A stretch of DNA of 64,000 nucleotides, from positions 14,446,001 to 14,510,000 of the forward strand of contig NC_090346.1 in assembly GCF_035084215.1 (NCBI RefSeq), read 5' to 3'. The notes under the pieces were generated by a model, which searched no databases, was not told the origin of the DNA, and saw only the letters and a list, made by a program, of their open reading frames with translations. This stretch comes from Heptranchias perlo (lineage: Eukaryota). A program made the position numbers and the translations under genes. Shown here in pieces: positions 2,952-64,000 of this stretch; within the stretch, counting starts at the first letter, position 1, and each line of letters starts with the position of its first letter.

Positions 2952-5859
2952 GGACCGCTAGGCACCGGACACGACAAAGGCAAACCAAGCCCAGTCGACC
3001 CTGCAAAGTCCTCCTCACTAACATCTGGGGACTTATGCCACAATTGGGAGAGCTGTCCCACAGACGAGTCAAGCAGCAGCCTGACATAGCCATACTCACA
3101 GAATCATACCTTTCAGCCAATGTCCCAGACTCTTGCATCACCATCCCTGGGTATGTCCTGTCCCACCGGCAGGACAGACCCACCAGAGGTGGCGGTACAG
3201 TGATATACAGTCAGGAGGGGGTGGCCCTGGGAGTCCTCAACATTGACTCCTGACCCCATGAAATCTTATGGCATCGGGTCAAACATGGACAAGGGAACCT
3301 CCTGCTCATTACCACCTACCGCCCTCCCGCGGCTGATGAATCATTCCTCCTCCATGTTGAGCATCACTTGGAGGAAGCACTGAGGGGAGCAAGGGCACAG
3401 AATGTACTCTGGGTGGGGGACTTCAATGTCCATCACCAAGAGTGACTCGGTAGCACCACTACTGACCGAGCTGGCCAAGTCCTGAAGGACATAGCTGCCA
3501 GACTGGGCCTGCGGCAGGTGGTGAGCAAACCAACACGAGGGAAAAACTTACTTGACCTCATCCTCACCAATCTATCTGTCGCAAATGCATCTGTCCATGA
3601 CAGTATTGGTAGGAGTGACCACCGCACAGTCCTCGTGGAGACGAAGTCCTGTCTTCGCACTGAGGATACCATCCAACGTGTTGTGTGGCACTACCACTGT
3701 GCTAAATGGGATAGATTCAGAACAGATCTAGCAGCTCAAAACTGGGCATCCATGAGGCGCTGTGGGCCATCAGCAGCAGCAGCAGAATTGTATTCCAGCA
3801 CAATCTGTAACCTCATGGCCCGCATATTCCTCACTCTACCATTACCAACAAGCCAGGGGATCAACCCTGGTTCAATGAGGAGTGTAGAAGAGCATGCCAG
3901 GAGTAGCACCAGGCGTACCTAAAAATGAGGTGCCAACCTGGTGAAGTTACAACTCAGGACTATATGCATGCTAAACAGCGGAAGCAACATGCAATGGACA
4001 GAGCTAAGCGATTCCACAACCAACGGATCAGATCAAAGCTCTGCAGTCCTGCTACATCCAGTCATGAATGGTGGTGGACAATTAAACAACTAACGGGAGG
4101 AGGAGGCTCTGTAAACATCCCCATCCTCAATGATGGCAGAGTCCAGCACGTGAGCGCAAAAGACAAGGCTGAAGCGTTTGCAACCATCTTCAGCCAGAAG
4201 TGCCGAGTGGATGATCCATCTTGGCCTCCTCCCGATATCCCCACCATCACAGAAGCCAGTCTTCAGCCAATTCGATTCACTCCACTTGATATCAAGAAAC
4301 GGCTGAGTGCACTGGATACAGCAAAGGCTATGGGCCCTGACAACATCCCGGCTGTAGTGCTGAAGATTTCTGCTCCAGAACTAGCCACGCCTCTAGCCAA
4401 GCTGTTCCAGTGCAGCTACAACACTGGCATCTACCCGACAATGTGGAAAATTGCCCAGGTATGTCCTGTCCACAAAAAGCAGGACAAATCCAATCCGGCC
4501 AATTACCGCCCCATCAGCCTACTCTCAATCATCAGCAAAGTGATGGAAGGTGTCGTCGACAGTGCTATCAAGCAGCACTTACTCACCAATAACCTGCTCA
4601 CCGATGCTCAGTTTGGGTTCCACCAGGACCACTCGGCTCCAGACCTCATTACAGCTTTGGTCCAAACATGGACAAAAGAGCTGAATTCCAGAGATGAGGT
4701 GAGAGTGACTGCCCTTGACATCAAGGCAGCATTTGACCGAGTGTGGCACCAAGGAGCCCTAGTAAAATTGAAGTCAATGGGAATCAGAGGGAAATCTCTA
4801 CAGTGGCTGGAGTCATACCTAGCACAAAGGAAGGTGGTAGTGGTAGTGGTTGTTGGAGGCCAATCATCTCAGCCCCAGGACATTGCTGCAGGAGTTCCTC
4901 AGGGCAGTGTCCTAGGCCCAACCATCTTCAGCTGCTTCATCAATGACCTTCCCTCCATCATAAGGTCAGAAATGGGGATGTTCGCTGATGATTGCACAGT
5001 GTTCAGTTCCATTTGCAACTCCTCAGATAATGAAGCATTCTGTGCCCGCATGCAGCAAGACCTGAACAGCAAGTAACATTCGTGCCAGATAAGTGCCAGG
5101 CAATGACCATCTCCAATAAGAGAGGGTCTAACCACCTGCCCTTGACATTCAACGGCATTACCATCACCGAATCCCCAACCATCAACATCCTGGGGGTCAC
5201 CATCAACCAGAAACTTAACTGGACCAGCCATATAAATACTGTGGCTGCAAGAGCAGGTCAGAGGCTGGGTATTCTGCAGCGAGTAACTCACCTCCTGACT
5301 CCACAAAGCCTTCCCACCATCTACAAGGCACAAGTCAGGAATGTGATGGAATACTCTCCACTTGCCTGAATGAGTGCAGCTCCAACAACACTCAAGAAGC
5401 TCGACACCATCCAAGACAAAGCAGCCTGCTTGATTGGCACCCCATCCACCACCCTAAACATTCACTCCCTTCACCACTGGCGCACAGTTGCTGCAATGTG
5501 TACCATCCACAGGATGCACTGCAGCAACTCACCAAGGCTTCTTCGACAGCACCTCCCAAACTCACGACCTCTACCACCTAGAAGGACAAGGGCAGCAGGC
5601 ACATGGGAACAACACCACCTGCATATTCCCCTCCAAGTCACACACCATCCCGACTTGGAAATATATCGCCGTTCCTTCATTGTCGCTGGGTCAAAATCCT
5701 GGAACTCCCTAACAGCACTGTGGGAGAACCTTCACCACACGGACTGCAGCAGTTAAAGAAGGCGGCTGACCACCACCTTCTCTAGGGCAATTAGGGATGG
5801 GCAGTAAATGCTGGCCTCGCCAGCGACTCCCACATCCCATGAACGAATAATAAAAAAAA
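2952..5859 (+). mobile_element. tRNA-headed LINE family (APE+RT, CR1/L2 group), copy 1, 5'-truncated and degenerate
   Basis: APE motifs ([28 protein letters not shown]) and RT motifs ([31 protein letters not shown]); A-rich tail at about 5847-5859; stops and frameshifts. Confidence 0.95.
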
Positions 5860-18600: not shown

Positions 18601-21600
18601 AACAGAAAATGCTGGAAATACACAGGTCAGTCAGCATCTGTAAGGAGAAGAGAGAGGTTATTGGTGTTTTGGGTATGCAACTGAAGCAAGTACTGATGTG
18701 TTGAAGTGTACTTTAAATGAAGGATATGGCCAGGGAACAGAGGGACCTAGAAAATGCATGCCAAGGAGAGGTGTGATACCATGTCTATCAGTTAAGTGAG
18801 ACCGGTGTTGTCCTTTATCATTTATGTAGGTCCACCTCATAAGCTTTCACAAATACACTTTCAACCAGCTATCATCAAGCATTTCATTTAAACAATTGTT
18901 TTTCTTAAACATTGTAGACTTTTTTTATTCGTTCATGGGATGTGGGCGTCGCTGGCGAGGCCGGCATTTATTGCCCATCCCTAATTGCCCTCGAGAAGGT
19001 GGTGGTGAGCCGCCGCCTTGAACCGCTGCAGTCCGTGTGGTGACGGTTCTCCCACAGTGCTGTTAGGAAGGGAGTTCCAGGATTTTGACCCAACGACGAT
19101 GAAGGAACGGCGATATATTTCCAAGTCGGGATGGTGTGTGACTTGGAGGGGAACGTGCAGATGGTGTTGTTCCCATGTGCCTGCTGCTCTTGTCCTTCTA
19201 GGTGGTAGAGGTTGCGGGTTTGGGAGGTGCTGTCAAAGAAGCCTTGGCGAGTTGCTGCAGTGCATCCTGTGGAAGGTACACACTACAGCCACGGTGCGCC
19301 GGTGGTGAAGGGAGTGAATGTTTTGGGTGGTGGATGGGGTGCCAATCAAGCGGGCTGCTTTATCTTGGATGGTGTCGAGCTTCTTGAGTGTTGTTGCAGC
19401 TGCACTCATCCAAGCAAGTGGAGAGTATTCCATCACACTCCTGACTTGTGCCTTGTAGATGGTGGAAAGGCTTTGGGGAGTCAGGAGGTGAGTCACTCGC
19501 CGCAGAATACCCAGCCTCTGACCTGCTCTCGTAGCCACAGTATTTATGTGGCTGGTCCAGTTAAGTTTCTGGTCAATGGTGACCCCCAGGATGTTGATGG
19601 TGGGGGATTTGGCGATGGTAATGCTGTTGAATGTCAAGGGGAGGTGGTTAGACTCTCTTGTTGGAGATGGTCATTGCCTGGCACTTATCTGGTACGAATG
19701 TTACTTGCCACTTATGAGCCCAAGCCTGGATGTTGTCCAGGTCTTGCTGCATGCGGGCTCGGACTGCTTCATTATTTGAGGGGTTGTGAATGGAACTGAA
19801 CATTGTGCAATCATCAGCGAACATCCCCATTTCTGACCTTATGATGGAGGGAAGGTCATTGATGAAGCAGCTGAAGATGGTTGGGCCTAGGACACTGCCC
19901 TGAGGAACTCCTGCAGCAATGTCCTGAGGCTGAGATGATTGGCCTCCAACAACCACTACCATCTTCCTTTGTGCTAGGTATGACTCTAGCCACTGGAGAG
20001 TTTTCCCCCTGATTCCCATTGACTTCAATTTTACTAGGGCTCCTTGGTGCCACACTCTGTCAAATGCTGCCTTGATGTCAAGGACAGTCACTCTCACCTC
20101 ACCTCTGGAATTCAGCTCTTTTTGTCCATGTTTGGACCAAGGCTGTAATGAGGTCTGGAGCCAAGTGGTCCTGGTGGAACCCAAACTGAGCATCGGTGAG
20201 CAGGTTATTGGTGAGTAAGTGCCGCTTGATAGCACTGTCGACGACACCTTCCATCACTTTGCTAATGATTGAGAGTAGACTGATAGGGCGGTAATTGGCC
20301 GGATTGGATTTGTCCTTTTTGTGGACAGGATATACCTGGGCAATTTTCCACATTGTCGGGTAGATGCCAGTGTTGTAGCTGTACTGGAACAGCTTGGCTA
20401 GAGGTGCAGCTAGTTCTGCAGCACATGTCTTCAGCACTACAGCTGGGATGTTGTCGGGGCCCGTAGCCTTTGCTGTATCCAGTGCACTCAGCCGTTTCTT
20501 GATATCAAGTGGAGTGAATCGAATTGGCTGAAGACTGGCTTCTGTGATGGTGGGGATATCGGGAGGAGGCCGAGATGGATCATCCACTCGGCACTTCTGG
20601 CTGAAGATGGTTGCAAACGCTTCAGCCATGTCTTTTGCACTCACATGCTGGACTCCGCCATCATTGAGGATGGGGATGTTTGCAGAGCCTCCTCCTCCCG
20701 TTAGGATGAGTGCATCTCCAACAACACTCAAGAAGCTCGACACCATCCAAGATAAAGCAGCCCGCTTGATTGGCACCCCATCCACCACCCTAAACATTCA
20801 CTCCCTTCACCACCGGCGCACTGTGGCTGCAGTGTGTACCATCCACAGGATGCACTGCAGCAACTCGCCAAGGCTTCTTCGACAGCACCTCCCAAACCCG
20901 CGACCTCTACCACCTAGAAGGACAAGAGCAGCAGGCACATGGGAACAACACCACCTGCACATTCCCCTCCAAGTCACACACCATCCCGACTTGGAAATAT
21001 ATCGCCGTTCCTTCATTGTCGCTGGGTCAAAATCCTGGAACTCCCTTCCTAACAGCACTGTGGGAGAACCGTCACCATATGGACTGCAGCGGTTCAAGAA
21101 AGCGGCTCACCACCACCTTCTCGAGGGCAATTAGGGATGGGCAATAAATGCTGGCCTCGCCAGCGACGCCCACATCCCGTGAACGAATTTTAAAAAAAAG
21201 TTGCTTAATTGTCCACCACCATTCACGACTGGATGTGGCAGGACTGCAGAGCTTTGATCTGATCCGTTGGTTGTGGAATCGCTTAGCTCTGTCCATTGCA
21301 TGTTGCTTCCGCTGTTTAGCATGCATGTAGTCCTGAGTTGTAGCTTCACCAGGTTGGCACCTCATTTTTAGGTACGCCTGGTGCTGCTCCTGGCATGCTC
21401 TTCTACACTCCTCATTGAACCAGGGTTGATCCCCTGGCTTGTTGGTAATGGTAGAGTGAGGAATATGCCGGGACATGAGGTTACAGATTGTGCTGGAATA
21501 CAATTCTGCTGCTGATGGCCCACATTGCCTCATGGATGCCCAGTTTTGAGCTGCTAGATCTGTTCTGAATCTATCCCATTTAGCACGGTGGTTGTGCCAC

Positions 21601-24600
21601 ACAACACGTTGGATGGTGTCCTCAGTGTGAAGACGGGACTTCCTTTCCACAGGGACTGTGCGGTGGTCACTCCTACCAATACTGTCATGGACAGATGCAA
21701 TTGTGACAGGTAGACTGGTGAGGACAAGGTCAAGTAAGTTTTTCCCTCGTGTTGGTTCGCTCACCACCTGCCACAGGCCCAATCTGGCAGCTATGTCCTT
21801 CAAGACTCGGCCAGTGGTGGTGCTACCGAGCCACTCTTGGTGACGGACATTGAAGTCCCCCACCCAGAGTACATTTTGTGCCCTCGCTACGCTCAGTGCT
21901 TCCTCCAAGTGGTGCTCAACATGGAGGAGGACTGATTCATCAGCTGAGGGAGGACGGTAGGTGGTAATCAGCAGGCGGTTTCCTTGCCCATGAGATTTCA
22001 TGGGGTCCAGAATCAATGTTGAGGACTCCCAGGACTACTCCCTCCTGACTGTATATCACTGTACTGCCACCTCTGGTCGGTCTGTCCTGCCGGTGGGACA
22101 GTGATGGAAGAGTCTGGGACGTTGGCTGAAAGGTATGATTCTGTGAGTATGGCTATGTCAGGCTGTTGCTTGACTAGTCTGTGGGACAGCTCTCCCAATT
22201 TCAGCACAAGTCCCCAGATGTTAGTGAGGAGGACTTTGCAGGGTCGACTGGGCTTGGTTTGCCGTTGTCGTGTCCAGTGCCCAGTGGTCCGTCCGGTTTT
22301 ATTCTTTTTATGACTTTTTGTAGTGAGATTTTACAACTGAGTGGCTTGCTCGGCCATTTCAGAATCAACCACATTGCTGTGGGTCTGGAGTCACATATAG
22401 GCCAGACCGGGTAAGGACGGCAGGTTTCCTTCCCTAAAGGACATTAGTGAACCAGATGGGTTTTTACAACAATCCGGTAGTTTCATGGCCAACATTACTG
22501 ATAGTAGTATTTTAATTCCAGATTTTTAATTAATTGAATTTAAATTCGCCAGCTGCCGTGGCGGGATTTGAATTTATGACTCTGGATTTTTAGTCCAGGC
22601 CTCTGGATTACTAGTCCAGTAACACAACCACTATGCTACCGTACCCTGTGATGGGGTTAGGGCACCAGGTGGCGTGATACTGAACCATACAAACCCTCAG
22701 CCTATGCTGAGTTTGCAGATCTCAATCAAGGCAGCAGTTGGGACACTAAATTGGCCTCCGTCCCTTTACCAGCGGGGATCACTGGATAGCAATCAAGATT
22801 GAGAACCCTGCCTGATTTTCTTTTTCCCCCCTCTACTGAGGCCGGTTGTAGCAACCACACTGCTGCCTTAGCTGAGGTCAATTAACTCAATACAGACCAG
22901 AAATCGAACCTGGAAACTTCCTGCTTGCTGTCTGTTTTTAACCCAATAAGCCACAGGGGACGATATGCTGAAATGGCTGTCTGCTGATCCTAATTTTGCT
23001 GAAGAAGATGGAGGGGAGCCCTGATACAGGGCTTTAAAATATTTAAAGGCATCGATAAGTTGAAGTAAACAAGCATTTTAATTTGGATGATGAACACAGG
23101 ATTAGAGAACACAAGTACAAAATTAACAAGTTCTGAGCAAGGTTTTAAAAAAAAAAACTTTCTCCCACAGCATGCAGTATAGACTCTCAGACAACGGTCA
23201 GATGACACCTTTACAAAGAAGCTGCATCAATATCTGTTGTTAGAGGTCTGAAAGTTAGAGATATGAACAGCCCTGCTTGATCTTTATCCAGGGCTGTAGA
23301 GGAAGGAACTTATTATCCTTAAATTAAGGAGGTCCACAGATAGTGTGGGTAGGAAGTCCAGTCTGCAGTAATCATACATGGGTCTGGATGGAGTAGAATG
23401 ATGGGCCGAATGGCTTTTTCTCAATTTGGACTTTATGTTCTGACTTTTGGTGTTTTGTCTGTTATTGAAACAACAACTTGCATTTATATAGCGCCTTTAA
23501 CGTAGTAAAACGTCGCAAGGAGCTTCACAGGCGCATAATCAGATAAAATTTGACACCGAGCCCTGTAAAGAGATACTAGGACAGGTGACCAAAAGCTTGG
23601 TCAAAGAGCAAACACCAACTTCAAAGTTTTCCATGGTTGGAGGGTTAGAAGAGGTGTTACCAGTTTAAACCTAAAACCAGAAACCTCAATAATATTTTCC
23701 TACATTACAACAGTGACTACACTTCAAAAAGTACTTAATTGGCTGTAAAGCACTTTGGGATGTCCTGAGGCCATGAAAGGCGCTATATAAATTCAAACCC
23801 TATCCTTTAATAATATACCATACCTTGTGAGACTCCTTCTGTGGTATAAATATACGATTGCTGTATTGCTGCCAATGCAATATAATATTTATAAGTGGAA
23901 CTGATTCTGTAAGACAAGTAATAGCCATGTGTTTAATGCACAATTAGCTCTCTGACTTCCATGAATATTGTATTACATCAGTAGATGAGTGTCCTGCTTT
24001 TGTACAGGCCCATTGGTGCTCAAGGGAATGATTTTTTATTTTTTTTTGTATCAACTTTTCTAATGTCCAAATGTATGGGATAAATTCTGTATTTAGCACC
24101 TTGTACATCAAGTAGCAATTTAATCTCTTAAAATATGCATAGGCTATTACTGCCTCTCACAGTCCATTTCTTAAAGTTAATAAATATTCCTGTGAAAATA
24201 CAGAACTAGATGTAGCAAAGCAGAAAGATGTTCATAATTCTTTGCTGCTGGATAAGAAATAGGAGCAGGAGTAGCCCATACGGCCCCTTGAGCCTGCTCC
24301 GCCATTCATTAAGGTCATGGCTGATCTTTGATTTCAACTCCACTTTTCCACCCTATCCCCATATCCCTTGATTCCCTTAGTGTTCAAAATCTAACGATCC
24401 TCAGTCTTGAATATGCTCAACAACTGAGCATCCACAGCCCTCTGGGGTAGAGAATTCCAAGTATTCATGGCCCTCATTCCTCCTCATCTCAGTCAAAAAT
24501 GTCCAACCCCTTATCCTGAGTCCATCTCCCCTAGTTCTAGACTCTCCAGCCAGGGGAGACATCCTTTCAGCATCTACACTGTCAAGCCCTCTTAGAATCT

Positions 24601-27600: not shown

Positions 27601-30600
27601 TCCCCTTTCCCTCCCTGGCATCACTCTATGACACATCCACTCTACACTTCCTCCTGTCTCTCCAGCAGCCTCAATCGGATGTGATACCACAGATCAATGA
27701 GAAAACAATTCAGCCCCTTTTCAACCACCATTACAAGCACACACTCCACCTCAACCCTTATTTTGTCCATTCTTCCCAGCCTCCTTTCCTGCTATCGTGG
27801 TCTACCCTGCTCTGCGTACTCCCTCCAACTAAGCCCCACCCCAGTATTGCAGCTCTGGCTCTACCCCCGATCTTAAGTGCAGCAGCCAGCTCCCCACCCA
27901 ATCCCAAGCCCAATTGTTAGCAGCTAGCTCTCTGACCAGCCCAGTCCCAAAGGCAGCAACCAGCTCCTGCATGACTTCAACTACAGCCAATCTGCTTGGT
28001 CCCACCCGAAGGTAGGTAGAGAGTAAACATTGGGCGTCCATTTAAATGCAATAGAATGGCAGCATTGTTTTACTTTTTGTATTAGACACACACTTTATGT
28101 CCTTTGAGGTATTTGCATTGTAATTTTTAAGTTTATGTAATTTACAATATTGATCTATTTAAACAACAATTTATAATACTGGAATAATTCAACTATTTAA
28201 TGTGCATATATAAAGTCTTGCATATAGCACATACTTCCTCTAAATGTCACTTACTTCCTACAACACCTCGCGCATTTCATTAATGACAACCGTACTGTTA
28301 TAAAACATCAACCCTTCACCATGAGCAATGTCATGGGAGATCCGCTAATATAAGATTTTATTTATGTCCCATGTTGATTGGTCCGTGCTAGCCATGTGAC
28401 TGGTAATTATTATTGTTCACATGATTACCAGAGATCAATCTGCCACTCCTGTTCCGGTCATCATTTTACAGCCAACCCCAACCCCCACCTCCTTGCTCTC
28501 TCTGCGCCAACAGCCCATGCCAAGGCAACAAGACAAACTAAATGCCAACCCACTGTTCCCAGAGAAAGACCAGATCATTTCTGCAGCTATCACTAGAGCC
28601 ACCTGCACTTCAAAAGTAATTAATTGGCTGCAAAGCACTTTGGGACATGATGAAAACGTTAAAAAGTGCTATATAAATGCAAGCGTTTTTTTATTACCAA
28701 ACACATGCTTTATCAGCACATAACATGTTTTCTTTGTTTCTTTTATACAGCTCTTTGTAGATAAGGATACAGTCGTCAATACGGTTAATGCATCACATGA
28801 CCTGCACCTGCTTAAGATTGACAACCAAGAAGACAAAATGGTGACTAGGGCAAATGGCTGGGTCACTGATTTGATTGAGAAGGTAAGGACAACCAGAATG
28901 GTTTAGTTCTGTGTTATTTTTATGTATGGTTCAGATGAATAAGCACACAAAATTTGAAGTTAAAGGGCCCATCAGCTTGATATTGTACTGTGGTAAAGAC
29001 TGGAAGTCAGTAACAGTTCAAAATGCAGTGATTGAACTTTAATTCCAGGTACATGAAATAGGTATAGGGTGAATCCTGTGATAGCTGAGAAATGTAAATG
29101 CATGATATGGGACTATCTCTTCCTCGAAGGTCCTAGAATTAAAGAAAGAAGAAATAAAGTACTTGCATTTATATAGCACCTTTCGTGACCTCAGGATGTC
29201 CCAAAGCGCTTTACAGCCAATGAAGTACTTTTGAAGCGTAGTCACTGTAGGAAACACGGCAGCCGGTTTGCACACAGCAAGGACCCGCAAACAGCAATGA
29301 GACAATGAGCAAGGGACTAGTAAGAAGGAGGAATTAAAGGAAATTAGTATTAGTAAAAAATAGTGCTGGAGAAATTAATGGGACTGAAAGCCGATAAATC
29401 CCCAGGGCCTGATAATCTGCATCGCAGAGTACTAAAAGAGGTAGCCATGGAAATAGTGGATGCATTAGTTGTCATTTTCCAAAATTATACAGATTATGGA
29501 ACAGTTCCTGCAGATTGGAGGGTGGTAAATGTAACCCCATTATTTAAAAAAGGAGGGAGAGAGAAAACATGGAACTACAGACCGGTTAGCCTAACATCAG
29601 TAGTGGGGAAAATGCTCGAGTCTATTATGAAGGATGTGATAACAGGACATTTAGAAGATATCAACGGGATTAGACAAAGTCAACATAGATTTATGAAAGG
29701 GAAATCATGTTTGACAAACCTACTGGAGTTTTTTGAGGATGTAACTGGTAGAATAGATAAGGGGGAACCAGTGGATGTGGTTTATTTGGATTTTCAGAAG
29801 GCCTTTGATAAAGTCCCACATAAGAGGTTATTGTGCAAAATTAAAGCACATGGGATTGGGGGTAATATACTGGCATGGATTGAAAATTGGTTAACAGACA
29901 GGAAACAGAGAGTAGGAATAAATGGGTCTTTTTCGGGGTGGCAGGCTGTGACTAGTGGGGTACCGCAGGGATCAGTGCTTGGGCCCCAGCTATTCACAAT
30001 ATATATCAATGATTTGGATGAGGGAACCAAATGTAATATTTCCAAGTTTGCTGACGACACAAAACTAGGTGAGATCGTGGGTTGTGAGGAGGATGCAAAG
30101 AGGCTTCAAGGTGATTTAGACAAGTTGAGTGAGTGGGCGGGCAAATACATGGCAGATGCAGTATAATGTGGATAAATCTGAAGTTATCCACTTCAGAAGG
30201 AAAAACAGAAAGGCAGAGTATTATTTAAATGGTGATAGATTGGGGAATGTTGATGTACAAAGGGACCTGGGTGTCCTTGTACACCAGTCACTGAAAGCAA
30301 ATATGCAGGTGCAGCAAGCAGTTAGGAAGGCAAATGGTATGTTGGCCTTCATTGCAAGAGAATTTGAGTACAGGAGTAAGGATGTCTTACTGCAGTTATA
30401 CAGGGCCTTGATGGGACCAGACCTGGAGTATTGTGTGCAGTTTTGGTCTCCTTACCTAAGAAAGGATATACTTGCCGTAGAGGGAGTGCAGCGAAGGTTC
30501 ACCAGACTGATTCCTGGGATGGCAGGACTGTCGTATGAGGAGAGATTGGGTCGACTCGGCCTGTATTCACTCGAGTTTAGAAGAATGAGAGGGGATCTCA

Positions 30601-44284: not shown

Positions 44285-44724
44285 TCAACTGTGGCTCAGT
44301 GGGTAGCACTATCACCTCTGAGTCAGAAGGTCGTGCCTTTGAGCTCCACTCCAGAGACTTGAACACAAGATCCAGGCTGATTCTGAGGGAGTGCTGCACT
44401 GTCGGAGGTGCTGCCTTTCAGATGAGATGTTAAACCGAGGTCCCTCAGGTGGATGTAAAAGATCCGATGACACTATTTCGAAGAAGAGCAGGGGAGTTCT
44501 CCCCGGTGTCCTGGCCAATATTTATCCCTCAACCAACATCACTAAAACAGATTATCTGGTCATTATCACATTGCTGTTTGTGGGATCTTGTTGTGCGCAT
44601 ATTGGCTGCTGCGTTTCCTACATTACAACAGTGACTGCACTTCAAAAAGTACTTCATTGGCAGTAAAGCGCTTTGGGATGTCCTGAGGTCATGAAAGACG
44701 CTACATAAATGCACGTCTTTCTTT
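44285..44724 (+). mobile_element. tRNA-derived Deu-domain SINE (SacSINE1/AmnSINE-like), representative near-complete copy
   Basis: A box TGGCTCAGTGG, Deu core gatgagatgttaaaccgagg...ccccggtgtcctggccaa, L2-type tail. Confidence 0.85.
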
Positions 44725-50723: not shown

Positions 50724-53700
50724 TTTTTTTTTTTTTTTTTTATTCGTTCACGGGATGTGGGCGTCGCTGGCGAGGCCAGCATTTATTGCCCATCCCTAAT
50801 TGCCCTCGAGAAGGTGGTGGTGAGCCGCCTTCTTGAACCGCTGCAGTCCGTGTGGTGACGGTTCTCCCACAGTGCTGTTAGGAAGGGAGTTCCAGGATTT
50901 TGACCCAGCGACAATGAAGGAACGGCAATATATTTCCAAGTCGGGATGGTGTGTGACTTGGAGGGGAACGTGCAGGTGGTGTTGTTCCCATGTGCCTGCT
51001 GCTCTTGTCCTTCTAGGTGGTAGAGGTCGCGGGTTTGGGAGGTGCTGTCGAAGAAGCCTTGGCGAGTTGCTGCAGTGCATCCTGTGGATGGTACACACTG
51101 CAGCCACAGTGCGCCGGTGGTGAAGGGAGTGAATGTTTAGGGTGATGGATGGGGTGCCAATCAAGCGGGCTGCTTTATCTTGGATGGTGTCGAGCTTCTT
51201 GAGTGTTGTTGCAGCTGCACTCATCCAGGCAAGTGGAGAGTATTCCATCACACTCCTGACTTGTGCCTTGTAGATGGTGGAAAGGCTTTGGGGAGTCAGG
51301 AGGTGAGTCACTCGCCGCAGAACACCCAGCCTCTGACCTGCTCTTGTAGCCACAGTATTTATATGGCTGGTCCAGTTCAGTTTCTGGTCAATGGTGACCC
51401 CCAGGATGTTGATGGTGGGGGATTCGGCGATGGTAATGCCGTTGAATGTCAAGGGGAGGTGGTTAGACTTTCTCTTGTTGGAGATGGTCATTGCCTGGCA
51501 CTTATCTGACGCGAATGTTACTTGCCACTTATGAGCCCAAGCCTGGATGTTGTCCAGGTCTTGCTGCATGCGGGCTCGGACTGCTTCATTATCTGAGGGG
51601 TTGCGAATGGAACTGAACACTGTGCAGTCATCAGCGAACATCCCCATTTCTGACCTTATGATGGAGGGAAGGTCATTGATGAAGCAGCTGAAGATGGTTG
51701 GGCCTAGGACACTGCCCTGAGGAACTCCTGCAGCAATGCCCTGGGGCTGAGATGATTGGCCTCCAACAACCACTACCATCTTCCTTTGTGCTAGGTATGA
51801 CTCCAGCCACTGGAGAGTTTTCCCCCTGATTCCCATGGACTTAATTTTACTAGGGCTCCTTGGTGCCACACTCGGTCAAATGCTGCCTTGATGTCAAGGG
51901 CAGTCACTCTCACCTCACCTCTGGAATTCAGCTCTTTTGTCCATGTTTGGACCAAGGCTGTAATGAGGTCTGGAGCCGAGTGGTCCTGGCGGAACCCAAA
52001 CTGAGCATCGGTGAGCAGGTTATTGGTGAGTAAGTGCCGCTTGATAGCACTGTCGACGACACCTTCCATCACTTTGCTGATGATTGAGAGTAGACTGATG
52101 GGGCGGTAATTGGCCGGATTGGATTTGTCCTGCTTTTTGTGGACAGGACATACCTGGGCAATTTTCCACATTGTCGGGTGGATGCCAGTGTTGTAGCTGT
52201 ACTGGAACAGCTTGGCTAGAGGCGCAGCTAGTTCTGGAGCACAAGTCTTCAGCACTACAGCTGGGATGTTGTCGGGGCCCATAGTCTTTGCTGTATCCAG
52301 TGCACTCAGCCGTTTCTTGATATCACGTGGAGTGAATCGAATTGGCCGAAGACTGGCTTCCGTGATGGTGGGGATATCGGGAGGAGGCTGAGATGGATCA
52401 TCCACTCGGCACTTCTGGCTGAAGATGGTTGCAAACGCTTCAGCCTTGTCTTTTGCACTCACGTGCTGGACTCCGCCATCATTGAGAATGGGGATGTTTG
52501 CAGAGCCTCCTCCTCCCGTTAGTTGTTTAATTGTCCACCACCATTCACGACTGGATGTGGCAGGACTGCAGCGCTTTGATCTGATCCGTTGGTTGTGGAA
52601 TCGCTTAGCTCTGTCTATAGCATGTTGCTTCCGCTGTTTAGCATGCATGTAGTCCTGAGTTGTAGCTTCACCAGGTTGGTACCTCATTTTTAGGTACGCC
52701 TGGTGCTGCTCCTGGCATGCTCTTCTACACTCCTCATTGAACCAGGGTTGATCCCCTGGCTTGTTGGTAATGGTAGAGTGAGGAATATGCCGGGCCATGA
52801 GGTTACAGATTGTGGTGGAATACAATTCTGCTGCTGCTGATGGCCCACAGCGCCTCATGGATGCCCAATTTTGAGCTGCTAGATCCGTTCTGAATCTATC
52901 CCATTTAGCACGGTCGTAGTGCCACACAACACGTTGGATGGTGTCCTCAGTGCGAAGACGGGACTTCATCTCCACGAGGACTGTGCGGTGGTCACTCTTA
53001 CCAATAATGTCATGGACAGATGCATTTGCGACAGGGAGATTGGTGAGGACAAGGTCAAGTAAGTTTTTCCCTCGTGTTGGTTCGCTCACCACCTGCCGCA
53101 GGCCCAGTTTCGCAGCTATGTCCTTCAGGACTCGGCCAGCTCGGTCAGTAGTGGTGCTACCGAGCCACTCTTGGTGATGGACATTGAAGTCCCCCACCCA
53201 GAGTACATTTTGTGCCCTTGCTACCCTCAGTGCTTCCTCCAAGTGGTGCTCAACATGGAGGAGGACTGATTCATCAGCTGAGGGAGGACGGTAGGTGGTA
53301 ATCAGCAGGAGGTTTCCTTGCCCATGTTTGACCTGATGCCATGAGATTTCATGGGGTCCAGAGTCAATGTTGAGGACTCCCAGGGCCACTCCCTCCTGAC
53401 TGTATATCACTGTACCGCCACCTCTGGTGGGAGGACCCTAGGCAAGACAGAGGGTCAGAGGGATCTTGGTGTGCAAGTTCACAGATCCCTGAAGGCGGCG
53501 GAACAGGTAGATAAGGTGGTAAAGAAGGCATATGGGATACTTGCCTTTATTAGCCGAGGCATAGAATATAAGAGCAAGGAGGTTATGATGGAGCTGTATA
53601 AAACACTGGTTAGGCCACAGCTGGAGTACTGTGTGCAGTTCTGGTCGCCACACTACAGGAAGGATGTGATCGCTTTGGAGAGGGTGCAGAGGAGATTCAC

Positions 53701-54712
53701 CAGGATGTTACCAGGGCTGGAGCGCTTCAGCTATGAAGAGAGACTGGGAAGATTGGGTTTGTTTTCCTTGGAGCAGAGGAGGCTGAGGGGGGACATGATT
53801 GAGGTGTACAAAATTATGAGGGGCACAGATAGGATGGATACTAAGGAGCTTTTTCCCTTCGTTGAGGGTACTATAACAAGGGGACATAGATTCAAAGTAA
53901 AAGGCGGGAGGTTTAGAGGGGATTTGAGAAAGAACTTTTTCACCCAGAGGGTGGTTGGAGTCTGGAACTCACTGCCTGAAAGGGTTGTGGAGGCAGGAAC
54001 CCTCACAACATTCAAGAAGCATTTGGATGAGCACTTGAAATGCCATAGCATACAAGGCTACGGACCAAATGCTGGAATATGGGATTAGAGTAGACAGGGC
54101 TGATGGCCGGCGCGGACACGATGGGCCGAAGGGCCTCTATCCGTGCTGTATAACTCTATGACTCTATGACTCTATGACATACCCAGGGATGGTGATGGAA
54201 GAGTCTGGGACGTTGGCTGAAAGATATGATTCTGTAAGTATGGCTATGTCAGGCTGTTGCTTGACTGGTCTGTGGGACAGCTCTCCCAATTTTGGCACAA
54301 GTCCCCAGATGTTAGTAAGGAGGAACTTGCAGGGTCGACTGGGCTTGGTGTTTTGCCGTTGTCGTGTCCGGTGCCTAGTGGTCCGATGCCGGGTGGTCCG
54401 TCCGGTTTTATTCTTATTATGACTTTTCGTAGCGAGATTTTACAACTGAGTGGCTTGCTAGGCCATTTCAGAGGGCAATTAAGAATCAACCACATTGCTG
54501 TGGGTCTGGAGTCACATATAGGCCAGACCGGGTAAGGACGGCAGGTTTCCTTCCCTAAAGGACATTAGTGAACCAGATGGGTTTTTACGACAATCCGGTA
54601 GTTTCATGGCCATCATCACTGATACTAGTATTTTAATTCCAGATTTTTTATTTAATTAATTGAATTTAATTCATTAATTGAATTTAAATTCGCCAGCTGC
54701 TGGGGCGGGATT
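50724..54712 (-). mobile_element. tRNA-headed LINE family, copy 3, near full length (ends inside the B box), young
   Basis: T18 tail 50724-50741. ORFs 51791-53410 and 50796-51869 are separated by one frameshift near 51840. The 5' leader matches the copy 2 leader. Confidence 0.95.
53432..54178 (+). mobile_element. Young CR1 3' fragment nested in LINE copy 3
   Basis: Open ORF to 54088; tail (actctatg)3; interrupts the host APE domain. Confidence 0.95.
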
Positions 54713-55116
54713 CTCCCCTTCCTCTCACCCTCCCACCCCCCCCAAGAAAATACGCTGCTCCCAGTTTCTCCACCTACAGTGTACAGTGATATTTAACCAC
54801 TTACAGCAGCGGTGATGACAGGAGGCAGGAGTTTGGGAACGGAGCTGTACGGGGAGGTGCTTCCTGCCCTGATTTTTATCCACTAACATGGGCAAGCAGA
54901 CAGTGCCCCCAAAATACTAATTGTCTATGTCAAACACAAATGGTTGGTATCTATGAGAGGGATAAACATATCTGCTGAATAGGAGTTCCATGGAGCCTGA
55001 AATCAGGCATCCGCCCCGTTCTCGGAGGGAAGGGTGGTGGGGAGGGTCAGTTTAAAATCCGGGCTTATATATTTTAAATATCTGAGATGTGACTGGTTAC
55101 CGTGCTAGTTGTCAGT

Positions 55117-55575
55117 GTCAGCCATGGCTCAGTGAGTCGCATGCTCGTCTGAGACAGAAGGTTGTAGGTTCAAGCCCCACTTCAGAGACTTGTGCACAAA
55201 ATCCAGGTTCACACTCCAGTGCAGTGCTCGGGGAATGTTGCACTGTCGGAGGTGCCGTCTCTCAAATGAGACATTAAACCGAGGCCCCGTCTGACCTCTC
55301 AGGTGGAGGTTAAAGATCCCATGGCACTTTTTAGAAGAAGAGCAGGGGAGTTCTCCCCGGTGTCCGAGCCAAATTTAATCCTCAACAATACCTAAAAACA
55401 GGTTATCTAGTCATTATCACACTGCTGTTTGTTGGATCTTGCTGTGCACAAATTGGCTGCTGCATTTCCTACATTACAACAGTGACTACACTTCAAAAAG
55501 TACTTAATTGGCTGTAAAACGCTTTGGGACGTCCGGAGATCATGAAAGGTGCTATATAAATGCAAGTCTTTATTT
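55117..55575 (+). mobile_element. Deu-domain SINE copy
   Basis: Head with A box and GGTTCAAGCC B box, Deu core, tail. Confidence 0.85.
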
Positions 55576-56449
55576 TCCTCAGGTTGCAGAAAATAGGCAT
55601 TCCAATCTGGTATGCGAAAGGGGCAAATTTCAAAGGCGCTATTCTTTGCAGATGTGTTTTGAATGCAAAGCAAGTAGAAACCTTTTACCACAGATTAGGG
55701 GATTTGTCCTGTAATCTGTCAGATTACAGTAAAATGCCTGGTAATGCAGCAAACGGGCAGTCCTTTCACATCTGAAGGAAATTCAGGAAACCTTTCCTTT
55801 AAATTGATAAACTTTGTTTCCAATGTGGAAGGAACCTTTTATTTCCCTTTTTCTAATGTTTTAACTTTTAAGATACATTGCCCACTAACATCTCCTGTTT
55901 ATAAATCCTGTGGATTTTAAAAAATCTGGTGCAATTTTGAGAGATACATATTTGAGTTCCTTTGTTCCTAGATGAACTTCAAAAGGGCTTGGATTGTACA
56001 GTGTAGTCCATCTAATTTGAAGTGGCTTATTGTGGGGAAAAAAAATTGAAATTAGCTGGCAGCAGAGATAAATTGAGTTTAATGGTGTTTCAATGAAACG
56101 GCACGGAAACACTTAAAATGCCATAAAACATCAAACAACAACTATTAAAGTCAAAACGACAGGGCTGTACAAGCTGTCCAGCACAAAGTTCAGTCGTTTC
56201 ACAAAATAATCTGTGACTGTGGTTTGCTTCATTGGTCCCCAGAACTGCCAACTCTGTTTAGCAGGGAGAAAAAAGTTCCAGCCAGACATCTGGCTTAGTC
56301 ATCAGCCAATTCCTCAGCAATCGCACATAAACGGACACGGTGGCTTTGGTGGAGGCCAGTTCCTCCTCCGTCTGCTCCTAGGGTTCGTTTGCTTGCACTC
56401 CCATGGGCGGTAGCATCCTTCCACGAAACGCAACAATATTTCTTATCTT

Positions 56450-56815: not shown

Positions 56816-57479
56816 CGGTGTGCAAATTTTTCTTTTCAAAACCAAAAATGGACGTGGAACTCACTGCATGTACAAACTCTCGCTGTCAGCTCTGATTTAA
56901 AGGGATACGGTCACTTAAAGGTAAATGGCTGCATACAGTGGCAAATATATCTGTAGACAGCCAACTGTTCAATTTGACATTTGATGGTGGCTTGGAAGGA
57001 TCCAGCGGCTGAAATGTTTAATGTTTGTCCAAGAGATGAGCCTCCCCTGTGGTGAAATTATCAGCAGCTCAGCTTGCAGGAGCTGGCAGCCTCACCTGTG
57101 AAGCAGAAAGCAGCAAAGGCAGGTCTCCTGTGACATGTACTGGTAGGTGTGGCAGGGTCTGTAAAGTTGGGTCTTGGGATAGTGATGGGTGTGAGCATAA
57201 TGATATCATTGCACCTGCATTTGTTGCCTCCCCCATGAAACCATCTTCCTCATCCAGATCATGCAGAGCTATCAGACCCTCAAAAAGGAATTCCTATCTT
57301 CATCACTTTGGTGCCATTTAAATTGCAGCAACTATCAAGAATACTGAAGGAAAGCATCGGCAAAAGGAAACAAACAATGAAAATATGAAATGGCACACTC
57401 TCCAAAAATTACAACCAATACATGGAACAAAATGCAAAGAATCTTGAATGCTAATTGAAAAAAAGTCGCATTTAGGAAA

Positions 57480-57895
57480 GAAAGAACTTACATTTAAATA
57501 GCTCTTTTCACGACCTCAGGACGTCCCAAAGTGCTTTACAGCCAATGAAGTACTTTTGAAGTGTGATCACTGTTGTAATGTAGGAAACGCAGCAGCCAAT
57601 TTGCACACAGCAAGATCCCACAAACAGCAATGAGATAAATGACCAGATAATCTGTTTTAATAATATTGGTTGAGGGACAAATATTGGCCAGGACACCAAG
57701 AGAACTCCTCTGCTCTTCTGCGAATAGTACTGTGGGATTTTTTACATCCACCTGAGAGGGCAGACATCTCACCCAATAGACGGCATCTCCAACAGTGCAG
57801 CACTCCCTCGGCACTGCACTGAAGTGTCATCCTTGAACACACGACCTTCTGACTCGGAGGCGAGAGTACTATTCCTGATCCATGGCTGACACTTG
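57480..57895 (-). mobile_element. Deu-domain SINE copy
   Basis: Family match. Confidence 0.8.
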
Positions 57896-59724: not shown

Positions 59725-60140
59725 ATTGGGTTCAAGTTCCACTGCAGAGACTTAAGCATAAAATCTAAGCTGACACTCCAGTGCACTACTGAGGGAGAGC
59801 TGCACTGTCGGATGTGCCATCTTTCGGATGAGACGTTAAACCAGGCCCCATCTGCCCTCTCAGGGGGACGTAAAATATCCCACGGCACTATTTTGAAGAA
59901 GAGCAGGGGGAGAGTTCTCCCTGGTGTCCTGGCCAATATTTACCTCGCAACCAACATCACTAAAAAATAGCTTATCTGGTTATTATCACATTGCTGTTTG
60001 TTGGACTTTGCTGTGCCCAAATTGGCAGCTGTGTTTCCTACATTACAATGGTGACTACACTTCAAAAAGTACTTCATTGGCTGTAAAGTGTTTTGGGATG
60101 TCCTGATGTTGTGAAAGGTGCTACATAAATGCAAATTATT
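59725..60140 (+). mobile_element. Deu-domain SINE copy
   Basis: Family match. Confidence 0.8.
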
Positions 60141-61647
60141 TATTTCTTCCGTGTCCTAGTCATGGTTTAACTTGAAACAGTGCTTTGAATTAACCTCCTC
60201 TGAGACTAAGGATCAGCTTTGTGGCCTTTCTCTGCATTACTTCCACGGGTTTAGATGTTTCCTGTGGGACTCAACCACCCAGTTACCAGTGGCTCCACCA
60301 ATTAAACTGTTCCATAAAAAGGCAGAATTTATAAGATTGACAACACTCTTAATGCAATGTTTACGATTCAAAGGATTCTTGTTATCTCATCTATGGAGGT
60401 GGGAGATTGTTTCGTCAACAGGATACTAAAGAAACTAGGACTACTTTCATGTCCACAAACCAGTAGTTTGAAAAAAATCTGAAGCAGTCATGTGCTTGCT
60501 TTCATGATCATTGAATGGTAGCTGTAACCACAGCAACCACCCCCTCATGACTGCCTCTGAAGCATCTACAAAAAAAAATCACTATACTAAGGTGAAACCT
60601 CCACTCCATTCTTATGAACACAAAAGTGCAACAAATACATTGTGGGACACTGTTCATGAAGCTGTCAAAAACCATGCTCACTTGTGAAGGATTGCATAAC
60701 TCGCTCATGACTTAGTTGCTGGTGAGAAACGGTCCTCATGAATGGAACATGGCTGTCCTCCATATTTGGTATCATTTGCCTGCATTACAGTAGCCACTAT
60801 GTGTGAAAGTAATTCTTTGTATGTGAGGCCCCTTAAAGCATTCCTAAGGTGTTACGAGATGCTATATAAAGGAATGTTCTTTCTTTCTATTCCCTATTGC
60901 TATATTGTCCTGGGTTATAATCAGGTCCCTCCCCAAACACACAGTAATCACAAACTGAGCAAATGCCCAATTTGCATTTGATGTGCTAAAGATCTCCAGG
61001 TCTGCCTCAACGAAGGACCATAAAGACTTTTCCAGAACCATTCAATACCTTTAGTTTCCAATTTAACTCTTCTACACAGCTCATACCAGACACTCACTTT
61101 AGTTTGCTTCTTTCTTTAGCTTTTTCCACAGTTAATGTCCCCACTTATGTGGGGGGGGGGGGGGCGGTGGAGATGAAGTGCAAAGAGAAAGATTGGAAGG
61201 TGGTAACCTGCTCTAGCTATTGCAAAATGATTTTCTTGAGCCAGCAGAAGATGCAAGATTATCTTGCAGTTCCTTTCCCCCTTGATTAAAAAAATTAAGG
61301 AATTTGTTGTGTGGCAATTTGCCAACATAAGCCAGTTCCCTACCATTCCCACCCATATAATTTTCAGAGGCAAGGGGACATGCAAATATCTCCCAGTGAA
61401 CAAAATTATATGCAACATAGAACAGTAATTATTTTGGGCAAGCTTTAAACTTGACAGGACAGGCAAAGACTGGTATTGCTTGGCCATTAATTAAAATTCC
61501 TATCTCTTCCCTTGTATAGATGTCAATGGTTATAGGCAAAATCAGTTGAGACAGTCTCATTGCAGTTCATATTGGCCATAGGTCCACATACATTGTGCTT
61601 TGAGAACAATAAACTTGAGGGGAAAGCTGTCTTCTAAGCAGATAAGT

Positions 61648-62108
61648 CAGTGTTAGCTATGGCTCGGTTGGTAACTGAGGTGAGTCAGAAGGTTAGTAGT
61701 TCAAACCCCATCCAGAGACTTGAGCACATAATCTAGGCTGATACTCCCAGTGCAGTACTGAGGAAGCGCTGTACTGTTGGAGGTGCTGGCTTTTGGATGA
61801 GTCGCTAAACTGAGACCCTGTCTGCTCTCTCAGGTGAATATAAAGCATCCTACGTCACTATTCCAAGAGCAGGGGAGTACTTCCCAATGTCCTGGCCAAT
61901 ATTTATCCCTCAACCAACATCACTAAAACAGATTATCTGGTCATTATCACATTGCTGTTTGTGGGATCTTGCTATTCACAAATTGGCTGCCACATTTCCT
62001 ACATTACAACCGTGACTGCACTTCAAAGTATTTCATTGGCTCTAAAGTCCTTTGGGATGTCCTGAGGTTGTGACAGGCACTATATAAATGCAAGTTCTTT
62101 CCTTTCTT
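61648..62108 (+). mobile_element. Deu-domain SINE copy
   Basis: Family match. Confidence 0.85.
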
Positions 62109-63362: not shown

Positions 63363-63426
63363 TAGCCGGGCTCGGTCCTAAAAGGGCAGCCTTACACAGG
63401 GGGAGCCTCTCATTGGGACTGAGTAG

Positions 63427-63707
63427 CAGGGATACTGGGGGAGCCTCGCACACTGGCACAGGGATACTGGGGGAGCCTCGCACACTGGCACAGGGATACT
63501 GGGGGAGCCTCGCACACTGGCACAGGGCTGCTGGGGGAGCCTCGCGCACTGGCACAGGGCTGCTGGAGGAGCCTCGCACACTGGCACAGGGCTGCTGGGG
63601 GAGCCTCGCGCACTGGCACAGGGCTGCTGGGGGAGCCTCGCGCACTGGCACAGGGCTGCTGGAGGAGCCTCGCGCACTGGCACAGGGCTGCTGGGGGAGC
63701 CTCGCGC
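63427..63707 (+). repeat. 32-bp GC-rich minisatellite
   Basis: Unit gagcctcgcrcactggcacagggmtrctgggg, starts at 63441, 63473 and so on. Confidence 0.95.
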
Positions 63708-64000
63708 GGGCTGGGGCAGGGATGGCGGGGGCAGCCTCGCGCGGGCTGGGGCAGGGATGGCGGGGGGGAGCCTCGCGCGGGCTGGGGCAGGGATGGCGGG
63801 GGGGAGCCTCGCGCGGGCTGGGGCAGGGATGGCGGGGGGGAGCCTCGCGCGGGCTGGGGCAGGGATGGCGGGGGGGAGCCTCGCGCGGGCTGGGGCAGGG
63901 ATGGCGGGGGGGAGCCTCGCGCGGGCTGGGGCAGGGATGGCGGGGGGGAGCCTCGCGCGGGCTGGGGCAGGGATGGCGGGGGGGAGCCTCGCGCGGGCTG
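63693..64000 (+). repeat. 36-bp G-rich minisatellite (runs off the window)
   Basis: Unit gagcctcgcgcgggctggggcagggatggcgggggg; gatggc at 63756, 63792, 63828. Confidence 0.95.

Follow-up and report, generated by a model that had tools for sequence, protein, structure and literature searches.

The 64,000-nt stretch of DNA analysed here (the window; Heptranchias perlo, NC_090346.1, positions 14,446,001 to 14,510,000 of the forward strand) carries three copies of one long interspersed nuclear element (LINE). Judged by its sequence, this LINE is the elasmobranch Zenon element of the CR1 group, an already known family. Its copies and their features are listed below, where ORF stands for open reading frame, RT for reverse transcriptase, Pol III for RNA polymerase III and T4 for a run of four or more T; the promoter boxes were matched to the general box consensus.

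50724..54712, minus strand: Zenon copy 3, interrupted by a CR1 fragment, with a frameshifted ORF; 98% identical to the full copy L038
54443..54712, minus strand: segment of copy 3 lying 5' of the ORF-adjacent TAA
54455..54461, minus strand: 7-nt hairpin loop CUAGCAA, predicted by folding to have the shape of a tRNA anticodon loop; intact in 45 of 59 copies
54440..54442, minus strand: in-frame TAA directly preceding the ORF; older subfamilies have TAC or TAT here
54430..54433, minus strand: in-frame GCUA, conserved and complementary to the hairpin loop; possible region of a non-AUG start
50796..54439, minus strand: frame for an APE endonuclease and RT (Pfam), split by an insertion and a frameshift, without sense T4
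53438..54175, plus strand: nested 3' fragment of a canonical CR1, in the orientation opposite to copy 3
50724..50795, minus strand: short 3' tail with AATAAA and poly(A)
18920..22646, minus strand: Zenon copy 2, with a whole head
22628..22638, minus strand: putative A box of a type 2 Pol III promoter, element nt 9, copy 2
22564..22575, minus strand: putative B box, element nt ~71, one mismatch, copy 2
2952..5859, plus strand: Zenon copy 1, 5'-truncated at element nt 407 and headless

Copy 3 is 5'-truncated at element nt 78 and thus lacks the A box, leaving copy 2 as the sole copy in the window with a whole head. An inverted 3' Zenon fragment is nested in copy 2 at 20704-21199, and inverted tail pieces also lie beside L058 and others. 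Among 3,077 candidates in the H. perlo genome, 40 copies were scored, at 98-100% identity; 39 young copies were analysed and, together with 20 older ones, make up a set of 59 (L031-L069, L290-L309). Full copies are 3.30-3.34 kb long (about 3.33 kb) and consist, from 5' to 3', of a head that begins at a fixed G and holds the A box at element nt 9 and the B box at nt ~71, a leader of about 350 nt, a frame of 973 codons, a 55-nt tail with AATAAA, and the poly(A) expected of a Zenon element. The single ORF encodes the APE endonuclease and RT (Pfam PF14529, PF03372 and PF00078), and there is no ORF1. Ten of the 39 young copies retain an unbroken frame of at least 968 codons and 34 reach the A box; in an unselected 264-kb stretch, four of six long copies start at nt 1-2. 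Counted by exact patterns, the genome contains at least 46,382 3' ends of the family and 4,564 leader-ORF junctions. Between 34 and 76% of the element's words were also found in sequencing runs of seven organisms and in a fish metagenome.

Zenon elements of sharks and rays, hagfish and coelacanth are described in the main text of PMC13343379 as ORF1-less and poly(A)-tailed, those of elasmobranchs being 3.24-3.31 kb long, and an excerpt of a whale shark preprint mentions CR1-Zenon once. We compared by eye the first 400 nt, and only these, of the consensus rows in the PMC13343379 supplement. All seven elasmobranch rows, from five species (dogfish, white shark, catshark, whale shark and stingray), open with a matching head and leader and contain no T4 over this length; two hagfish rows and one coelacanth row show no such head and do contain T4 or longer runs.

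The earlier note on this locus had claimed that the sense strand of the LINE is devoid of T4, read there as the Pol III terminator. We recounted and found zero sense T4 in copy 1 (2952-5851), in both parts of copy 2 outside its insert, and in copy 3 (54176-54712 and 50742-53437), which has 19 sense runs of four or more A; the ordinary CR1 used as a control carries T4 exactly at 29475, 29729, 29791, 29929 and 30441, as had been reported. The pattern extends to the family. T4 is absent from 35 of the 39 young copies; in L040 and L045 it lies inside nested inserts, L056, a copy with an insertion of about 110 nt, has one, and L042 has one in the body. Twelve of the 20 older copies are likewise free of it, with nine runs in total, and the oldest subfamily (~78% identity) has nine runs in 18,481 nt.

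To compare these counts with chance, codon-shuffled versions of the consensus had been proposed as a control; for the natural copy L038, the result was divided. Zero T4 proved borderline, being reached by 8.2% of synonymous-codon shuffles (P=0.082), with P=0.125 when codon order was shuffled, 0.113 for first-order Markov sequences and 0.013 when single bases were shuffled. Depletion of TTT was clear: the ORF contains 5 against 14.4 expected (synonymous shuffle, P=0.0004), and no trinucleotide of the element is depleted more strongly than TTT (observed/expected 0.26), not even those containing CpG. Codon choice shows the avoidance as well: at sites where TTT would result, a T-ending synonymous codon is used 5 of 40 times, compared with 193 of 484 at other sites (P=0.0005), and no such difference appears for A (37/75 versus 182/325, P=0.31). 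Interrupted or degenerate T-signals number 4 on the sense strand versus 46 on the antisense strand. At the protein level, Phe makes up 1.85% of residues, compared with 4.18 +/- 0.97% in 140 homologues, one of which is lower, and the pairs FF and FL are absent, as in 1 of 129 homologues.

Relatives are not depleted in this way. From 160 related loci in metagenomes and metagenome-assembled genomes, presumably host DNA, we kept 119, dropping 41 whose longest ORF was below 450 aa, that had N within the ORF or that gave no blastp match. None of the 119 ORFs is T4-free (median 6.6 per kb, lowest 0.35), and their TTT observed/expected ratio has a median of 1.12 and a minimum of 0.51, compared with 0.24 in the Zenon ORF. 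All 12 canonical CR1 copies from the same genome also carry T4 (73 in 29.8 kb, or 2.45 per kb). Together, these results support well the conclusion that T-runs are avoided on the sense strand, and that this avoidance is real and specific both to strand and to runs. Selection against such runs is thus well supported, and it coincides with a conserved A/B-box head; its attribution to Pol III read-through in the earlier note goes further than the counts, and 35 of the 39 young copies contain TCTTT.

The head places A and B boxes at tRNA-like spacing near a fixed 5' end, and the B box and the 5' end are both fixed in the elasmobranch rows of the supplement, which come from sharks and a ray. ARAGORN reported no tRNA or cloverleaf in the window. 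Near the ORF start of the 119 relatives we found no A and B box pair, a weak negative, as many contigs end at the ORF or close to it; the same truncation limits a blast of the leader against the 160 loci, which gave no match except one of 47 nt (E 0.005). The viral contigs searched contained no relatives, and the word-index homologue search yielded only 21 proteins. At the 3' end, T4 directly precedes the A-tail in 6,451 copies and is absent in 39,931 (about 14% with T4); T-runs right after the poly(A) are uncommon (2/61). The position before the poly(A) is the one place where the family often has T4, and there, as in the T+ class of tRNA-derived short interspersed nuclear elements (SINEs), a terminator would sit; this lends weak support to Pol III transcription. 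From these features of its sequence, we consider that Zenon is probably an autonomous LINE transcribed by Pol III, and its RNA likely a rare natural example of a messenger RNA made by this polymerase.

How such an RNA might be translated is suggested by the ORF start. The first in-frame Met is residue 250, past the endonuclease, and the leader contains nine AUGs; in 47 of 54 endonuclease-bearing relatives, Met occurs at or before the domain. Codons 1-249 are nevertheless under purifying selection: among non-CpG variants of the 59 copies, shared ones number 14 synonymous to 4 not and private ones 74 to 204 (P=2e-5), and the differences listed for other organisms number 8 to 3. The region is thus translated, which points to initiation elsewhere than at an in-frame AUG. 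Furthermore, the in-frame TAA just upstream is present in 47 of the 59 copies; because lineages with it stayed under selection (15 synonymous variants against 2 others), read-through from the AUG at nt 325 is disfavoured.

The leader itself appears to be structured (fold z = -3.1), and its long 5' stem shows, by eye in the supplement rows, compensatory changes between species. The last leader hairpin exposes the loop CUAGCAA, with which an in-frame GCUA 12 nt downstream is predicted to pair. GCUA is kept in 48 of the 59 copies; the oldest subfamily has it in 10 of 17, plus three forms attributable to CpG decay. By eye in the supplement rows, it occurs in five of five species with varying flanks and lies in the ORF frame in four of them, the dogfish row being one base off within an A-run. 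In the window, Rfam gave no match at E <= 0.1 and hence no described IRES (internal ribosome entry site) model (PKII/PKIII domain), although newer subtypes may be missing from Rfam. On this sequence evidence, the Zenon ORF is likely translated from a non-AUG codon. In the Zenon copies, the two middle letters of CTAG and GTAC depart from the common letter at rates of 0.087 and 0.055, compared with 0.008 and 0.007 for CATG and GATC (7-12 times as often); this excess reflects either a mutation hotspot or an assembly artefact, and it affects the hairpin-loop counts.

Zenon has also given rise to SINEs. The genome contains 526 exact leader-to-tail joins (34+492), versus 4,564 leader-to-ORF joins. 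Of 30 joins that were read, most belong to elements of about 450 nt sharing the 5' end of the LINE, and the recurrent join types keep 9-20 nt of the ORF start and leader variants of the youngest LINEs. These retained features indicate that the 450-nt SINEs arose from the LINE by deletion, and this LINE-to-SINE deletion has been repeated, several times independently; similar joins occur in contigs of three other organisms. SINEs being short, non-coding and non-autonomous, the 973-codon LINE is not one and its 450-nt derivatives are. The head may stem from either a SINE or a tRNA gene. We rejected the leader as a Deu domain, as in the DeuSINEs SacSINE1 and AmnSINE1: the published Deu alignment (supplement of PMC7245038) matches another SINE of the window, and a profile from 15 Deu-SINE copies gave no hit on the Zenon leader, while 4 of 300 shuffles were listed.

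We propose that TFIIIC and Pol III would initiate at the fixed first G, 8 nt upstream of the A box, and that selection against T-runs, presumably the cause of their depletion, would allow Pol III to read through 3.3 kb. Termination would follow at a T-run at or past the tail, if the T4 seen at some 3' ends has this meaning. The RNA would be uncapped, its structured leader recruiting ribosomes, and translation would most likely start at or just past the conserved in-frame GCU, predicted to pair with the anticodon-like loop. The protein would then copy the RNA by target-primed reverse transcription, as is known for the family. In its fullest form, this model joins Pol III transcription, the purging of T-runs and a tRNA-mimicking, factor-poor IRES into a system wholly outside the Pol II and cap machinery across sharks and rays; we offer that combination tentatively and would not expect every part of it to hold.

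Several observations weigh against this proposal. Taken alone, the absence of T4 is weak evidence (P=0.08), its borderline value arising because the null models preserve an amino-acid content and a codon usage which have themselves been adapted. With a T fraction of 0.194, the ORF is the T-poorest of the 120 compared, so part of the T-run effect is composition. Three relatives in which a head was undetected, L211, L288 and L257, carry a single T4 run each, the contigs of L211 and L257 stopping at the ORF start. T4 is never gained among 117 shared variants, among 150 relative to the oldest subfamily or, for other organisms, among the 40 listed of 280; these zeros are uninformative because too few gains are expected. 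Young copies have gained TCTTT at nt 567-571 (35 of 39, compared with 3 of 18 older copies), a moderate terminator at which, in a mammalian SINE context, roughly half of the transcripts end (PMC8466645); non-canonical terminators are also described in PMC3141230. The T4 before the poly(A) may also have another origin, as such runs can lengthen with age by A-to-T change (PMC8466645). Since the A box is part of a predicted RNA stem, structure may account for its conservation. One young sublineage shows several shared amino-acid changes. Lastly, the putative loop-GCUA pseudoknot has only 4 bp and no covariation was seen in it, decayed copies yielding little covariation.

Other explanations were weighed against Pol III transcription. 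The element could be autonomous and made by Pol II, from an internal promoter or by read-through from a host gene, with the head a captured SINE kept as RNA structure or as the promoter of the short derivatives; T-runs would then be avoided for other reasons, such as U-rich processing or decay signals, innate sensing, or pairing with the poly(A) tail. Transcription of LINEs is normally by Pol II (PMC5786205), and the AATAAA near the 3' end, the low overall T content, the tolerance of TCTTT by young copies and the locking of the head in a long predicted stem would all fit. We regard this explanation as rather unlikely: headless poly(A)-tailed relatives have ordinary T4 density (20 runs in the ORF of L130), the avoidance is specific to runs and to strand, the B box and 5' end are fixed in sharks and a ray, and cap-dependent scanning would meet nine leader AUGs and no in-frame one. 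It is improbable that T4 is missing by chance from a coding strand poor in T and rich in C and A, without any relation to the head. Codon and first-order models do yield it at P=0.08-0.13, and the T fraction is the lowest of the set, but TTT remains depleted once codon usage and amino acids are controlled for (P=0.0004), codon context has a significant effect for T and not for A, the oldest subfamily is depleted as well, and no relative matches the Zenon ORF. Other LINEs are known to obtain their 5' ends by cleavage, and a long Pol II read-through RNA cut at the tRNA-like head by an RNase P-like activity would account for the fixed 5' end, and for RNA lacking a cap, with no role for Pol III. 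The 5' end does lie near where a mature tRNA would start (A box at nt 9). This route seems very improbable, as no cloverleaf was found, the head pairs with the body, and both T-run avoidance and B-box conservation are left unexplained.

For translation, the alternative is an AUG start combined with recoding, under any polymerase: either ribosomes read through the in-frame Met-Ala-stop at nt 325 or reinitiate behind it, or they enter the ORF by a -1 shift out of an overlapping +1 frame that AUG 296 or AUG 380 opens. AUG GCC UAG CAA is indeed in frame, older subfamilies lack the second stop, and no stop interrupts the +1 frame where the ORF begins. Six of seven elasmobranch rows of the supplement contain AUG 380, by eye; among young or older copies, 19 of 22 have AUG 296. 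The between-subfamily conservation there partly fits both frames. Against this stand the second in-frame stop in 47 of 59 copies with continuing selection (15:2), and the oldest subfamily, which has AUG 296 in 1 of 11 copies and AUG 380 in none of 11, with some GTG at 325. Moreover, the shared variants at nt 372, 433, 465 and 474 are synonymous in the ORF frame and, as read by hand, amino-acid-changing in the +1 frame, and no conserved slippery site was evident by eye. Recoding thus retains some likelihood, and we consider it doubtful overall.

The family is known; its mechanism is undescribed. The head sits in the published Zenon consensus rows, but the head, the T-run avoidance, the missing AUG and the SINE derivatives are not described in the main text of PMC13343379, in which tRNA, polymerase, promoter, IRES and translation have zero occurrences. 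At the title and abstract level of the literature searched, with subscription papers and Repbase entries mostly outside it, we found no Pol III-driven autonomous LINE described. Lepidopteran Zenon-derived elements are reported, in the relevant part of PMC6740152, to be without tRNA homology or a Pol III promoter; the H. perlo Zenon, in contrast, has the A/B-box head. This element resembles tRNA-derived T+ SINEs, as outlined in PMC8466645, in its A/B-box head, fixed 5' end, absence of internal T4 (with TCTTT in young copies), AATAAA and, in some copies, a T-run before the A-tail. Unlike these SINEs, it is seven times longer and encodes its own endonuclease and RT under purifying selection. Its short derivatives, made of the 5' and 3' ends of a LINE, recall the bipartite LINE-derived SINE bodies and internally deleted elements of PMC5786205 and PMC6740152. 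The bipartite-SINE model, as published there, adds the Pol III head after the deletion, whereas the full Zenon LINE already carries the head, so that deletion alone yields a SINE.

A second likeness is to the type 6 (dicistrovirus intergenic region, IGR) IRES, characterized in the relevant section of PMC12221177 by a non-AUG start, an anticodon-mimic hairpin loop, an A-rich linker and GCU at the start region; Zenon likewise has an A-rich linker and a GCU there, and the corresponding pairing, like that of pseudoknot I (PKI), is predicted. Types 6a-6d decode GCU as their first codon, whereas in Zenon it would be the paired codon. Further unlike type 6, Zenon has no Rfam match and, beyond the 4-bp PKI-like pairing, no other pseudoknots were identified. 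A type 6-like IRES has been raised as a possibility for elements without long terminal repeats in a passage of PMC3894237.

If these readings are correct, Zenon would break an accepted division of labour, in which Pol III makes short non-coding RNAs and LINEs need Pol II. It would be a natural Pol III messenger 3.3 kb long, its copies numbering in the tens of thousands, and a model for the translation of uncapped RNA in a vertebrate. A comparable system would be R2, a LINE whose RNA does not come from its own Pol II promoter, is uncapped, and is translated via a structured 5' region without a conserved AUG. R2 differs in that Pol I transcribes it together with rRNA, a ribozyme releases it and its endonuclease is restriction-like. 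If the IRES reading is also right, an IRES type so far described only in RNA viruses would occur in Zenon, and the conserved SINE body would be a ribosome-binding module. That a single deletion leads straight from LINE to SINE bears on the questions of SINE-body origin and function raised in parts of PMC5786205 and PMC4824008.

A few further observations concern related sequences and the rest of the window. L288 and L211 are poly(A)-tailed distant relatives with a single T4 in the ORF and with missing or truncated 5' ends; in L288, TTT has z = -4.4. ORF pieces at 79-84% identity are fused into the annotated shark protein models P0002, P0009, P0016 and P0017, probably through annotation error or exonisation. 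An older SINE form consists of the Zenon leader without the last hairpin and has a T7 run before the A-tail (L092/L093 region, joined position ~238760-239060). The window also holds an abundant tRNA-headed, SacSINE1-like SINE with a Deu-domain body, at 55110-55590, 44387-44724, 57476-57809, 59729-60145 and 61681-62107; this SINE has 15 copies longer than 250 nt in 264 kb. Finally, positions 63399-64000 of the window are occupied by a GC- and CpG-rich tandem array with a 32-nt period.

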